The notes beneath the pieces are model-generated. The model did no database searches. It was not told the DNA's origin and saw only the letters and a program-made list of their open reading frames with translations. Below are positions 54,952 through 59,967 of a stretch of 64,000 nucleotides of DNA, piece by piece. The stretch is from NCBI RefSeq assembly GCF_003790525.1, contig NZ_CP033635.1. One strand, 5' to 3'. Each line of letters opens with the position of its first letter. Positions within the stretch are counted from its first letter, which is position 1. The position numbers were made by a program, and so were the translations under genes. The stretch comes from Escherichia coli (GTDB lineage Bacteria > Pseudomonadota > Gammaproteobacteria > Enterobacterales > Enterobacteriaceae).

Positions 54952-55189
54952 CAAGTTTTCTCCTTTTTTATTACCACACAAAAAGTGATATTACGCATTT
55001 TTACACACTGTGATGAAAAAATCTCCCGTCATTTATAATGATAAGTGTTTTTACCACTTCCCCTTTTCGTCAAGATCGGCCAAAATTCCACGCTTACACT
55101 ATTTGCGTACTGGCCATTGACCCCTTCCTGACGCTCCGTGTCGTTTTTCCGGCGTACCGCAACACTTTTGTTGTGCGTAAGGTGTGTAA

Positions 55190-55205
55190 AGGCAAACGTT
55201 TACCT
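55190..55205. promoter_or_regulatory. PUR box (purR autoregulatory operator O1): AGGCAAACGTTTACCT
   Basis: Matches the PurR operator consensus (core GCAAACGTTT); 45 bp upstream of the purR ATG. Confidence 0.7.
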
Positions 55206-55249
55206 TGCGATTTTGCAGGAGCTGAAGTTAGGGTCTGGAGTGAAATGGA

Positions 55250-56275
55250 ATGGCAACAATAAAAGATGTAGCGAAACGAGCAAACGTTTCCACTACAACT
55301 GTGTCACACGTGATCAACAAAACACGTTTCGTCGCTGAAGAAACGCGCAACGCCGTGTGGGCAGCGATTAAAGAATTACACTACTCCCCTAGCGCGGTGG
55401 CGCGTAGCCTGAAGGTTAACCACACCAAGTCTATCGGTTTGCTGGCGACCAGCAGCGAAGCGGCCTATTTTGCCGAGATCATTGAAGCGGTTGAAAAAAA
55501 TTGCTTCCAGAAAGGTTACACCCTGATTCTGGGCAATGCGTGGAACAATCTTGAGAAACAGCGGGCTTATCTGTCGATGATGGCGCAAAAACGCGTCGAT
55601 GGTCTGCTGGTGATGTGTTCTGAGTACCCAGAGCCGTTGCTGGCGATGCTGGAAGAGTATCGCCATATCCCAATGGTGGTGATGGACTGGGGTGAAGCAA
55701 AAGCTGACTTCACCGATGCGGTCATTGATAACGCGTTCGAAGGCGGCTACATGGCCGGGCGTTATCTGATAGAACGCGGTCACCGCGAAATCGGCGTTAT
55801 CCCTGGCCCGCTGGAACGTAACACCGGCGCAGGCCGCCTTGCCGGTTTTATGAAGGCGATGGAAGAAGCGATGATCAAAGTGCCGGAAAGCTGGATTGTA
55901 CAGGGTGACTTTGAACCTGAATCCGGTTATCGCGCCATGCAGCAAATACTGTCGCAACCGCATCGCCCTACTGCCGTCTTCTGTGGTGGCGATATCATGG
56001 CAATGGGCGCACTTTGTGCTGCTGATGAAATGGGTCTGCGCGTGCCGCAGGATGTTTCGCTGATCGGTTATGATAACGTGCGCAACGCCCGCTATTTTAC
56101 GCCAGCGCTGACCACGATCCATCAGCCAAAAGATTCGCTGGGCGAAACGGCGTTCAACATGCTGTTGGATCGTATCGTCAATAAACGCGAAGAACCGCAA
56201 TCCATTGAAGTGCATCCGCGGTTGATTGAACGCCGCTCCGTGGCTGACGGCCCGTTCCGCGACTATCGTCGTTAA
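55250..56275 (+). CDS. purR: Purine repressor PurR (LacI family)
   Basis: 341 aa beginning [36 protein letters not shown]. Confidence 0.97.
55279..55294. promoter_or_regulatory. PUR box (purR operator O2) inside the purR coding region: AGCAAACGTTTCCACT
   Basis: Second PurR-consensus match, within codons 10-15 of purR, consistent with a known intragenic operator. Confidence 0.65.
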
Positions 56276-57204
56276 TCACCCGTTGCGGGAGTCTCTTCCG
56301 GCTCCCGCAGCCACTCCTTATTCAGCGTCTCACTATCGCCGAGATACTCAAGCAACCAGGTTAACGCAGGCGACATATCATTTTGCTGCCATGTCAGACA
56401 ACATGCCGAATCCGGGAAGGGGTTTTCCAGTTCTAGTGCTACCCACTTCCCCTCATTAAGCCACGGTTTGGCGAAATGTGTTGGCACCATCCCTATGCAT
56501 AATCCTGCCGAGATACAGGTTGCCGATGATTCCCAGTCAGGCACGACAACTCTTTTTTGGTTATCCAGCAACCAGGTAATACGTTTAGGTAGCGTTCGCG
56601 AGGTGTCTTCGCGCACCAATGACGGCCAGTTGCGCAACGTATCATCGCTGAACGGGCCATCCATCAACGCCAGCGGGTGGTGACTGGCAACAACGCAACT
56701 CCAGCTTAGCATCCCCATATCCCGGAAGGCATAACGACCACCTACCGGAATCGCGCGTGTTGCGCCAATCGCCAGTTCCACGCGCCCGTCGGAAAGCGCA
56801 TCCCAGACACCGTTGAACACTTCCTGAAAGACAAGAAGTTCGACATCATCAAAATGGCGATAAAAATCAACGATCATCTGCCGTGTACGTTCTGGCCTGA
56901 CAATATTATCCACTGCGATAGCTAACTGACCGCGCCAGCCGTTCGCTATCTGCTGACATTGCTGCCGGGTGATCTGCATTTTTTTGACAACAGAGCGCCC
57001 TTCTTTGAGAAACCACGCCCCGGCAGCGGTCAGTTCCACATCACGGTGACGTCGTTCAAACAGCGGCACCGCCAGCCACTCTTCCAGCTGACGCACGGTA
57101 TAGCTGACCGCAGAAGGAACGCGATGCAACTCCTGTGCCGCAGCGCTAAAACTACCATTACGCGCTACCGCATCAACAACTTCGAGTGAATATTCTGACC
57201 ACAT
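56272..57204 (-). CDS. punR: LysR-family regulator PunR (YdhB)
   Basis: 310 aa LysR-type regulator; divergent from punC; 3' end overlaps the purR stop. Confidence 0.85.
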
Positions 57205-57316
57205 AGTCTGCCTGCAAAATTTTTGAAACCAGTCATCAAATATTACCGTTTCACAACACTAATTTCACTCCCTACACTTTGCGGCGGTGTTTAATTGAGA
57301 GATTTAGAGAATATAC

Positions 57317-58528
57317 ATGCAACCTGGGAAAAGATTTTTAGTCTGGCTGGCAGGTTTGAGCGTACTCGGTTTTCTGGCAACCGATATGTATCTGCCTGCT
57401 TTCGCCGCCATACAGGCCGACCTGCAAACGCCTGCGTCTGCTGTCAGTGCCAGCCTTAGTCTGTTCCTTGCCGGATTTGCCGCAGCCCAGCTTCTGTGGG
57501 GGCCGCTCTCCGACCGTTATGGTCGTAAACCGGTATTATTCATCGGCCTGACAATTTTTGCGTTAGGTAGTCTGGGGATGCTGTGGGTAGAAAACGCCGC
57601 TACGCTGCTGGTATTGCGTTTTGTACAGGCTGTGGGTGTCTGCGCCGCGGCGGTTATCTGGCAAGCGTTAGTGACGGATTATTATCCTTCACAGAAAGTT
57701 AACCGTATTTTTGCGACCATCATGCCGCTGGTGGGTCTATCTCCGGCACTGGCTCCTCTGTTAGGAAGCTGGCTGCTGGTCCATTTTTCCTGGCAGGCGA
57801 TTTTCGCCACCCTGTTTGCCATTACCGTGGTGCTGATTCTGCCTATTTTCTGGCTCAAACCCACGACGAAGGCCCGTAACAATAGTCAGGATGGTCTGAC
57901 CTTTACCGACCTGCTACGTTCTAAAACCTATCGCGGCAACGTGCTGATATATGCGGCCTGTTCAGCCAGTTTTTTTGCATGGCTGACCGGCTCACCGTTC
58001 ATCCTTAGTGAAATGGGTTACAGCCCGGCAGTTATTGGTTTAAGTTATGTCCCGCAAACTATCGCGTTTCTGATTGGTGGTTATGGCTGTCGCGCCGCAC
58101 TGCAGAAATGGCAAGGCAAGCAGTTATTACCGTGGTTGCTGGTACTGTTTGCTGTCAGCGTCATTGCGACCTGGGCTGCGGGCTTCATTAGCCATGTGTC
58201 GCTAGTCGAAATCCTGATCCCATTCTGTGTGATGGCGATTGCCAACGGTGCGATCTACCCGATTGTTGTCGCTCAGGCGCTGCGTCCCTTCCCACATGCA
58301 ACTGGTCGCGCCGCAGCGTTGCAGAACACTCTGCAACTGGGTCTGTGCTTCCTCGCAAGTCTGGTAGTTTCCTGGCTTATCAGTATCAGCACGCCATTGC
58401 TCACCACCACCAGCGTGATGTTATCAACAGTAGTGCTGGTCGCTCTGGGTTACATGATGCAACGTTGTGAAGAAGTTGGCTGCCAGAATCATGGCAATGC
58501 CGAAGTCGCTCATAGCGAATCACACTGA
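57317..58528 (+). CDS. punC: MFS purine nucleoside transporter PunC (YdhC)
   Basis: 403 aa; 12-TM Bcr/CflA-type major-facilitator transporter. Confidence 0.85.
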
Positions 58529-58818
58529 TCTATATCGATATACTTATACTTAGGCTGCTAACAAAATTTTGTTGTATGATTGAAATTAGCGGCCTATACT
58601 AATTTCGAGTTGTTAAAGCTACGATAAATATTATGTTTTTACGGGGACAGGATCGTTCCCGACTCACTATGGATGGTCATTTCGGCAAGGGTTCCTCCTT
58701 TCCCTCTGTTCTACGTCGGATTATAGACTCGCGGTTTTTTCTGCGAGATTTCTCACAAAGCCCAAAAAGCGTCTACGCTGTTTTAAGGTTCTGATCACCG
58801 ACCAGTGATGGAGAAACT

Positions 58819-59967
58819 ATGAGTTCATCGTGTATAGAAGAAGTCAGTGTACCGGATGACAACTGGTACCGTATCGCCAACGAATTACTTAGCCGTGCCG
58901 GTATAGCCATTAACGGTTCTGCCCCGGCGGATATTCGTGTCAAAAACCCCGATTTTTTTAAACGCGTTCTGCAGGAAGGATCGTTGGGGTTAGGCGAAAG
59001 TTATATGGATGGCTGGTGGGAATGTGACCGACTGGATATGTTTTTTAGCAAAGTCTTACGCGCAGGTCTCGAGAACCAACTCCCCCATCATTTCAAAGAC
59101 ACGCTGCGTATTGCCGGCGCTCGTCTCTTCAATCTGCAGAGTAAAAAACGTGCCTGGATAGTCGGCAAAGAGCATTACGATTTGGGTAATGACTTGTTCA
59201 GCCGCATGCTTGATCCCTTCATGCAATATTCCTGTGCTTACTGGAAAGATGCCGATAATCTGGAATCTGCCCAGCAGGCGAAGCTCAAAATGATTTGTGA
59301 AAAATTGCAGTTAAAACCAGGGATGCGCGTACTGGATATTGGCTGTGGCTGGGGCGGACTGGCGCACTACATGGCGTCTAATTATGACGTAAGCGTGGTC
59401 GGCGTAACCATTTCTGCCGAACAGCAAAAAATGGCTCAGGAACGCTGTGAAGGCCTGGATGTCACCATTTTGCTGCAAGATTATCGTGACCTGAACGACC
59501 AGTTTGACCGTATTGTTTCTGTGGGGATGTTCGAACACGTCGGACCGAAAAATTACGATACCTATTTTGCGGTGGTGGATCGTAATTTGAAACCGGAAGG
59601 TATATTCCTGCTCCATACCATCGGTTCGAAAAAAACCGATCTGAATGTTGATCCCTGGATTAATAAATATATTTTTCCGAACGGTTGCCTGCCCTCTGTA
59701 CGCCAGATTGCTCAGTCCAGCGAACCCCACTTTGTGATGGAAGACTGGCATAACTTCGGTGCTGATTACGATACTACGTTGATGGCGTGGTATGAACGTT
59801 TCCTCGCCGCATGGCCAGAAATTGCGGATAACTACAGTGAACGCTTTAAACGGATGTTTACCTATTATCTGAATGCCTGTGCAGGTGCTTTCCGCGCACG
59901 TGATATTCAGCTCTGGCAGGTGGTGTTCTCTCGCGGAGTCGAAAACGGCCTTCGAGTCGCTCGCTAG
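58819..59967 (+). CDS. cfa: Cyclopropane-fatty-acyl-phospholipid synthase
   Basis: 382 aa; SAM-dependent methyltransferase motif (VLDIGCGWGG); about 290-bp upstream untranslated/promoter region. Confidence 0.95.
   Translation: MSSSCIEEVSVPDDNWYRIANELLSRAGIAINGSAPADIRVKNPDFFKRVLQEGSLGLGESYMDGWWECDRLDMFFSKVLRAGLENQLPHHFKDTLRIAGARLFNLQSKKRAWIVGKEHYDLGNDLFSRMLDPFMQYSCAYWKDADNLESAQQAKLKMICEKLQLKPGMRVLDIGCGWGGLAHYMASNYDVSVVGVTISAEQQKMAQERCEGLDVTILLQDYRDLNDQFDRIVSVGMFEHVGPKNYDTYFAVVDRNLKPEGIFLLHTIGSKKTDLNVDPWINKYIFPNGCLPSVRQIAQSSEPHFVMEDWHNFGADYDTTLMAWYERFLAAWPEIADNYSERFKRMFTYYLNACAGAFRARDIQLWQVVFSRGVENGLRVAR

Follow-up and report, generated by a model that had tools for sequence, protein, structure and literature searches.

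A conserved GC-rich hairpin at the overlapping 3' ends of purR and punR in Escherichia coli and related Enterobacterales

Genes, operators, and the stop-codon overlap at the purR-punR locus

The DNA analyzed in this study, referred to as the window, is a stretch of 64,000 nucleotides from the genome of Escherichia coli. Three genes of purine metabolism and transport are located in its last part. The purR gene (55250-56275, plus strand; b1658 in K-12) encodes the purine repressor of the LacI family, a protein of 341 amino acids. The punR gene (ydhB; 56272-57204, minus strand; b1659 in K-12) encodes a LysR-type activator of punC of 310 amino acids, and punC (ydhC; 57317-58528, plus strand), which is divergent from punR, encodes a purine nucleoside transporter of the MFS type. 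All three proteins were matched by NCBIfam equivalog profiles at scores above the respective cutoffs: PurR by NF007979 (711 bits, cutoff 501), PunR by NF008294 (528 bits, cutoff 345), and PunC by NF008270 (600 bits, cutoff 430). Additionally, the domains PF00126 and PF03466, the LysR helix-turn-helix and substrate domains, were found on the PunR cluster. The NF008294 profile has 300 positions and matched residues 1-300 of PunR only, so that the last 10 amino acids of the protein fall outside the family model. The segment 55000-58600 was 100% identical to strain SMS-3-5 and was found in 5,424 of 5,426 complete E. coli genomes, while an 81-nt segment spanning the junction was at least 99% identical in 4,943 of 5,423 complete genomes.

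The purR and punR genes are convergent and meet at their stop codons. The purR stop codon TAA occupies 56273-56275, and the punR stop codon TAA, as identified from the sequence and the ORF listing, is the reverse complement of 56272-56274, such that the tetramer TTAA at 56272-56275 contains both and no intergenic DNA separates the genes. The first-pass annotation had placed the end of purR at 56275 on the plus strand and the end of punR at 56272 on the minus strand with this TTAA in common, and this was borne out by the sequence, the ORFs, and the annotation of K-12 MG1655, where purR (1737844-1738869) and punR (1738866-1739798) overlap by the same four bases; about 5,400 RefSeq genomes carry this annotation as well. 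Both are genuine genes, with orthologues in 85 taxa.

Convergent overlaps of the types TTAA, CTAA, TTAG, and CTAG are a described discrete class, and their accepted origin is mutation of the stop codon (PMC2174442). The number of convergent overlaps reported for E. coli ranges from 58 (PMC2174442) to 75 (PMC4161906), and in 19 of the 58 the terminator of one gene is located inside the coding sequence of its partner (PMC2174442). The purR-punR junction has the defining features of the 4-nt class, namely two genuine genes whose stop codons lie on opposite strands within a TTAA. A punR reading frame that reaches the purR stop in one of the three frames necessarily ends on this tetramer. The overlap is real but ordinary, it is already annotated, and it is not beyond chance expectation.

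Sites for both regulators were found around the two genes. The PUR-box core GCAAACGTTT occurred in two copies, at 55192-55201 and 55280-55289, against 0.28 expected. Each belongs to a 16-bp palindrome close to ACGNAAACGTTTGCNT: the box O1, AGGCAAACGTTTACCT, at 55190-55205 in the 5' leader of purR, and the box O2, GAGCAAACGTTTCCAC, at 55278-55293 within purR codons 10-15. Two boxes had been proposed in the first-pass annotation, where the position of the first was correct, while that of the second (55279-55294) was off by one relative to the register of the first. Autoregulation of purR through two sites downstream of its promoter, including binding at O2, was reportedly described by Rolfes and Zalkin in 1990. 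In vivo binding of PurR is documented for O1 by ChIP-chip, as the motif AGGTAAACGTTTGCCT assigned to purR in Table 1 of PMC3159470 is O1. In the same study, PurR occupied its own gene only when adenine was present, and adenine induced ydhC/punC 194-fold (PMC3159470).

The intergenic region between punR and punC is 112 bp long. The 23-bp PunR operator consensus published in PMC8376909 had a single match in the window, TGCCTGCAAAATTTTTGAAACCA at 57209-57231, with 0 expected by chance, and the operator is backed by ChIP-exo and EMSA in that study. Hence, punR shows the arrangement of a LysR-type divergent regulator, with the two LysR domains, a divergent target, and an operator in the common intergenic region. 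The earlier description of punR as a LysR regulator divergent from the MFS transporter gene punC is supported by the family profile matches and by this operator-containing region. The purine-related cluster of purR, punR, and punC that was proposed with it is likewise real, and its gene context is already described in PMC8376909. The PUR boxes, the PunR operator, and the divergence of punR and punC are published biology restated.

A conserved hairpin inside punR and the mapped end of the purR transcript

A GC-rich stem-loop is located at 56282-56311, inside the last codons of punR, and begins 7 nt past the purR stop. Its stem of 12 bp, G-U pairs included, is formed by 56282-56293 and 56300-56311 around a 6-nt loop (56294-56299), and the core of the stem is a perfect 8-nt inverted repeat (56284-56291 and 56302-56309). 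When folded in a context of 106 nt, the region had an MFE of -40.5 kcal/mol (z = -3.8), and 0 of 200 shuffled sequences folded as well. The hairpin encodes approximately residues 298-307 of PunR. On the plus strand, the 3' arm is the complement of the codons for the conserved Leu-Arg-Glu-Pro of PunR, and the 5' arm encodes, in E. coli, the Thr-Pro-Ala of the PunR tail EETPATGD.

No Rfam family was found for the hairpin, the sole Rfam match in 54700-58900 being STnc550. Scans for promoters and terminators were at chance level in the region (4 versus 3.7 expected and 5 versus 4.7 expected). A larger enclosing helix, GUGGCUG/CAGCCAC, was present in the E. coli fold and was rejected: its two sides both belong to conserved coding sequence, and the observed variants, GTGGCGG with CAACCAC, are not compensatory. 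As a separate observation, the 7-residue tail of E. coli PunR appeared junk-like, with an x-Pro-Ala motif that is the complement of the stem.

The conservation of the hairpin was analyzed in a scan of one genome per species that covered 80 Enterobacteriaceae loci, 79 of which, including that of K-12, carry both genes. A hairpin of -15.7 to -26.8 kcal/mol was found at the same place in 78 of the 79 species, and the single exception has a different, inserted hairpin. A covariance model was seeded on 21 ungapped sequences, and 76 matches were aligned to it. In this alignment, 93% of the cells were paired, compared with 35-51% when the partners were slid, and eight of the 10 pairs had changes on both sides (51 cells), with 0 of 500 shuffles reaching any of the observed measures; as the alignment was fitted to the structure and built from related sequences, its cells are not independent events. 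A sequence-only alignment by MAFFT with RNAalifold did not recover the helix, giving only two pairs with the 5' arm mis-registered, because the loop and spacer lengths vary among species.

An independent check in fixed coding-frame coordinates identified 16 haplotypes of the right arm, for which the partner arm was altered to match (for example, GGCTCCCGC with GCGGGAGCC, GGTGTCCGC with GCGGACACC, and GGCACCCGC with CCGGGTGCC). Arms that were swapped between species or shuffled paired far worse than the true partners. In the species whose PunR has only 303 amino acids, the 5' arm is non-coding and nevertheless tracks every change in the coding arm, and the complementarity therefore cannot be a by-product of coding. 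Within the inner eight pairs, G-U pairs in the purR sense outnumbered A-C, the wobble of the opposite sense, by 38 to 1, a count of non-independent cells in the structure-fitted alignment. The mean MFE over the 79 species was -20.7 kcal/mol in the purR sense and -20.1 kcal/mol in the punR sense (Wilcoxon p = 0.18). Since the two did not differ, the stem can form in both transcripts, and a single functional strand is not claimed.

The 3' end of the purR mRNA falls at the foot of this stem. In the Term-seq data of Adams et al. (2021; PMC7815308, supplementary file 1), the steady-state 3' end maps to K-12 positions 1738907/1738908, which were converted to 56313/56314 on the plus strand of the window by means of the printed sequence from -50 to +10 around the end. 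It lies inside punR, past the stem by 2-3 nt and past the purR stop by 38-39 nt. The end is classed as primary and as antisense to ydhB, and it appears twice in the table of three growth conditions (PMC7815308). With the end 38 nt past the stop, the final 42 nt of punR (56272-56313) are covered in antisense by the purR mRNA. Such a configuration is common, as the same study assigned both classes, primary and antisense, to 99 3' ends of E. coli (PMC7815308).

These data bear on two statements of the first-pass annotation. Its proposal of a coupled junction had been made to depend on whether 3' ends map upstream of the overlap; the Term-seq end of purR lies downstream, and the RNA overlap is real on the purR side. 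The annotation had also stated that the convergent genes leave no room for a conventional terminator. This is accurate with respect to intergenic DNA, of which there is none, but not as an absence of any 3'-end signal, given the conserved hairpin 7 nt past the purR stop and the mapped end behind it. For punR, the Term-seq tables of PMC7815308 contain no 3' end, and the use of the hairpin by the punR mRNA can thus only be inferred. None of the junction genes is mentioned in the SMRT-Cappable-seq supplements.

The formation of the purR 3' end may be pictured as follows. Polymerases transcribing purR would run beyond its stop codon onto the antisense strand of punR, the RNA would fold into the hairpin, and the stable mRNA would end 2-3 nt after it. 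By one route, Rho would terminate transcription farther downstream, on the untranslated and C-rich RNA antisense to punR, and 3'-5' exonucleases would then trim the transcript back to the hairpin. By another route, the end would arise through hairpin-induced pausing or through the collision of RNA polymerases at a boundary element that acts in both directions. Over the 80 nt that follow, the C/G ratio was 1.6 (94th percentile of the window background), which is suggestive only. The bicyclomycin dataset (PMC7815308, supplementary file 2) contains no Rho-termination region near K-12 1738800-1739399, which may reflect low expression; unless it does, the route through Rho and trimming is weakened, and room is left for a hairpin-type bidirectional terminator. 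The same palindrome can fold in the punR mRNA and probably serves the punR 3' end as well.

Lability of the junction and a proposed drift of the punR stop codon

While the hairpin remained in place, the junction around it varied widely. The two genes were convergent, with a PurR of 341 amino acids, in all 79 Enterobacteriaceae species. Based on ORFs walked from their starts, the 4-nt overlap with a PunR of 310 amino acids occurred in 27 of these species, and a spacer of 14-22 bp with a PunR of 303 amino acids was found in 46. Spacers of 1-5 bp occurred in five of the 79, and one had a spacer of 45 bp with the 303-residue PunR. The 303-residue proteins of the 46 species end in ...EWLREPE or a close variant, and their stop codon is located in the hairpin loop or just 5' of it.

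Individual taxa extended this range further. For example, the 4-nt overlap was also present in Serratia plymuthica, Erwinia sp. 9145, and Cedecea neteri, while a Pantoea sp. had a spacer of 72 bp that contains two separate hairpins. The Klebsiella pneumoniae-type junction had a PunR of 334 amino acids and an overlap of 74 nt. In Yersinia pseudotuberculosis, PunR is annotated with 376 amino acids and extends by an overlap of 138 nt into the purR antisense; purR ends in TGA in this species, and hence no complementary stop is available as a backstop. Across Enterobacterales, the extremes of the junction were thus a spacer of 72 bp and an overlap of 138 bp.

For taxa beyond the Enterobacteriaceae sample, the PunR homologues were traced to their contigs, and the neighborhood was found to be syntenic over at least seven genes (cfa, punC, punR, purR, ynhF, an NlpC/P60 gene, and grxD). 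Since the entire neighborhood is syntenic, the adjacency of purR and punR is by itself no sign of selection for coupling. A neighbor-joining tree was constructed from purR and punR of 85 taxa across Enterobacterales, aligned by MAFFT at the fast setting, and at least 10 changes between the overlap and spacer states were observed on it. Parsimony with few outgroups tentatively favored the overlap at the root.

These distributions are consistent with a stop codon that drifts along a fixed hairpin. A stop at codon 304, in the loop or just 5' of it on the purR strand, would give the 303-residue PunR and the spacer of 14-22 bp. After a loss of this stop, translation would go on along the 5' arm. 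One of the three frames would bring it to an end at a TTA or CTA complementary to the purR stop TAA or TAG, giving the PunR of 310 residues and the 4-nt overlap, while in the other frames it would proceed for tens of codons into the purR antisense, the situation found in the Yersinia and Klebsiella forms. Such drift is the best reading of the overlap, with the TTA or CTA opposite the purR stop serving as a backstop; being the place where a drifting stop meets that backstop, it would be a by-product and not a device. Its neutrality is an assumption of this reading.

Interpretation of the junction and comparison with known systems

The most probable account of the junction, held with good though not full confidence, is that TTAA is an ordinary tail-to-tail overlap of two stop codons and that the element under selection is the GC-rich hairpin common to both transcripts. 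Two alternatives place the selected function in convergent transcription. According to one, transcription of purR into punR, or the antisense overlap of 42 nt between the mRNAs, lowers punR expression, and autorepression by PurR under purine excess relieves punR and favors the induction of punC. This is unlikely, even though the purR 3' end does lie inside punR, so that complementarity of the mRNAs spans 56272-56313 or more, the two genes stay tail to tail across Enterobacterales, with Serratia, Yersinia, Erwinia, and Pantoea among them, and the responses of punC and of PurR occupancy to adenine would give the scheme a coherent logic. The defined purR 3' end at the conserved hairpin sets a limit on read-through into punR, the junction geometry is not conserved (+72 to -138, with the two separate hairpins in the Pantoea spacer), and the synteny from cfa to grxD means that the adjacency requires no special selection. 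Moreover, autoregulation of purR amounts to only about 2-3-fold. The punR-punC pair also occurs in Pseudomonas (PMC8376909). From the sequences compared, convergent interference appears to gain little from the comparative data. A stronger version, in which the junction is a selected link, has read-through from purR and at least 42 nt of antisense RNA set PunR inversely to the activity of the purR promoter, with the hairpin adjusting the amount of polymerase or antisense RNA that passes the boundary. This version is quite improbable; if it were true, autorepression by PurR under purine excess would feed forward into punC induction.

Two further alternatives concern the hairpin itself. It is highly improbable that it acts as a canonical bidirectional intrinsic (Rho-independent) terminator that alone stops both polymerases. 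The GC-rich 12-bp stem with its 6-nt loop, the equal stability on both strands, and the purR 3' end directly after the stem would all fit such a terminator, but the U tract that should directly follow the stem is missing. No U-rich tract of 7-8 nt was found after the stem on either strand (AGCCACUCCUUAUUC and AGCCACUC in the purR sense, AACGGGUGAUUAACG and AACGGGUG in the punR sense), and a terminator scan that requires at least five T in 8 nt did not report the hairpin. A partly T-rich stretch farther downstream, which encodes Asn-Lys/Arg-Glu, lacks conservation, and many species have CCCGGTTC in its place. Given the missing U tract, the hairpin falls outside the class of canonical intrinsic terminators. 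It is scarcely credible, finally, that the palindrome is a side effect of coding, a product of chance, or a protein-binding site at the DNA level with no role in RNA. Half of it is indeed constrained by protein sequence, as the 3' arm encodes the conserved Trp-Leu-Arg-Glu-Pro of PunR, but the non-coding 5' arm of the 303-residue species follows all changes of the coding arm across the 16 haplotypes, and the swap, shuffle, and slid-partner controls paired far less well. Preserved complementarity in a varying sequence speaks against a site that a protein recognizes by its sequence, and both the 38-to-1 excess of purR-sense G-U, counted as above in related, structure-aligned cells, and the purR RNA end at the foot of the stem speak for a role in RNA.

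Little new biology follows from the junction as such. The overlap, the gene cluster, and the PUR boxes were annotated or published before, and the purR 3' end was already in a public Term-seq table. What is incremental here is a hairpin supported by covariation that straddles the end of punR, with the stop in or beside its loop, together with the recurrent shift of the stop to the TTAA backstop. The locus thereby offers a clean example of stop-codon drift, where a conserved RNA hairpin spans the final codons of a gene and the stop alternates between the loop region and the stop of the neighboring gene. It also carries a caveat for genetics, as edits at the 3' end of punR also alter the purR stop or the purR 3' hairpin, and phenotypes ascribed to punR could therefore include changed levels of PurR. 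For example, a C-terminal tag inserted immediately ahead of the punR stop would split the purR stop codon, and deletions that retain only the last punR codons carry the same caveat. A Myc-tagged strain was used in PMC8376909.

Among known systems, the regulatory features of the locus correspond to published PurR autoregulation through two operators and to the divergent LysR module of PunR and punC, where the boxes, the operator, and the gene order in the window match without a difference. Hairpin-type bidirectional terminators between convergent genes, involving RNA polymerase collision, were reportedly described by Ju et al. in 2019. Such terminators resemble neither intrinsic nor Rho-dependent terminators, and termination by collision is reported to work best for highly expressed convergent pairs (bioRxiv 10.1101/2022.10.23.513370). 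The purR-punR element is similar to them in being a single palindrome at a convergent boundary that is unlike an intrinsic terminator and can fold in both transcripts. It differs in lying inside punR codons with no intergenic space and in that only the purR 3' end is mapped; in addition, purR and punR are probably weakly expressed, unlike the pairs that are best terminated by collision.

A second likeness is to the protective 3' stem-loops of Rho-dependent transcripts (Dar and Sorek, 2018; PMC6061677), which, as in purR, are stable and GC-rich and are located just upstream of a precise 3' end. The purR mRNA shows a defining feature of this class, a precise steady-state 3' end right after a stable stem-loop without a U tract (PMC6061677). 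The U-less stem and the position of the end at its foot, within the coding sequence of punR, match protective stem-loops, and the C/G ratio of 1.6 is a suggestive addition. A difference is that Rho dependence and exonuclease trimming are putative for purR, near which the bicyclomycin dataset of PMC7815308 contains no Rho-termination region.

With the 4-nt convergent overlaps of prokaryotes, the junction shares the two stops on opposite strands within one tetramer and an origin in stop-codon movement, and it is one annotated instance of that class with no essential difference. What is documented here for this instance is the repeated gain and loss of the overlap (at least 10 changes among the 85 taxa) and a fixed alternative stop in or just 5' of the hairpin loop.

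Consequences of the overlap for punR genetics

The 3' end of punR (56272-57204, -) cannot be edited without touching sequence shared with purR (55250-56275, +). A C-terminal tag placed directly 5' of the punR stop codon would split the purR stop codon. A deletion sparing just the last few punR codons would eliminate one arm, the 3' one, of the hairpin (56282-56311) that follows purR. Since edits to the punR end within 56272-56311 hit either the purR stop codon or the hairpin, punR phenotypes may include purR effects. The chromosomal Myc-tagged punR of the PunR/punC paper (PMC8376909) is one such edited strain, in which any effect on purR would depend on where the tag sits.

Variant junctions in other species

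A 45-bp spacer between purR and punR was found only in Enterobacter sp. kpr-6 (locus L037) among the species compared. There, a different strong hairpin (GGGCCTGCGG...CTGCAGGCC) was inserted 3' of the purR stop codon; the coding 3' arm of the usual hairpin was kept and the usual 5' arm was lost. Additionally, the annotated PunR of Yersinia pseudotuberculosis (376 aa; L084, 3001-4131) and that of the Klebsiella pneumoniae type (334 aa; L086, 2501-3505) carry C-terminal extensions that reach 138 nt and 74 nt, respectively, into the purR antisense strand. The purR stop codon of Yersinia is TGA, and hence the backstop, a TTA or CTA complementary to the purR stop, is absent. The two long forms could be genuine extended overlaps, or they could be stop-loss variants.

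Transcripts around the purR leader

A full-length match to the Rfam family STnc550 (396 bits) was identified on the minus strand at 54859-55249, with the small gene cydH/ynhF (54862-54951) inside it. Its 5' end at 55249 directly adjoins the start codon of purR, so that STnc550 runs head-to-head with purR, across both the leader of that gene and PUR box O1 (55190-55205). The same 5' end is 29-44 nt downstream of PUR box O2 (55278-55293), such that O2 occupies the place expected for a promoter; the STnc550 transcript might also be under PurR control.

PUR box O2 is also flanked by two additional 3' ends on the purR strand (+) in the Term-seq tables of Adams et al. 2021 (PMC7815308), one at K-12 1737833 (window ~55239), 11 nt 5' of the purR start codon, and the other at K-12 1737952 (window ~55358), 108 nt inside the purR ORF. 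Both are marked "No" in the apparent Rho column of supplementary file 3. Attenuation, pausing, or processing within the autoregulated purR leader could account for them.

Neighboring 3' ends at punC, cfa, and ribC

The same Term-seq data include a strong 3' end of the "orphan" class at K-12 1741259 (window ~58640-58666, +), preceded by the hairpin CGGGGACAGGATCGTTCCCG and located between punC and cfa, ~137 nt past the punC stop codon. This end may represent the punC terminator or an end inside the long cfa leader. To the right of window ~59967, cfa and ribC form an adjacent convergent pair with a 39-bp spacer, where a very strong 3' end at K-12 1742568 (-) is classified as the primary ribC end, in antisense orientation to cfa. 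The cfa/ribC pair is a conventional shared-terminator junction, adjoining the overlapping one of purR and punR.
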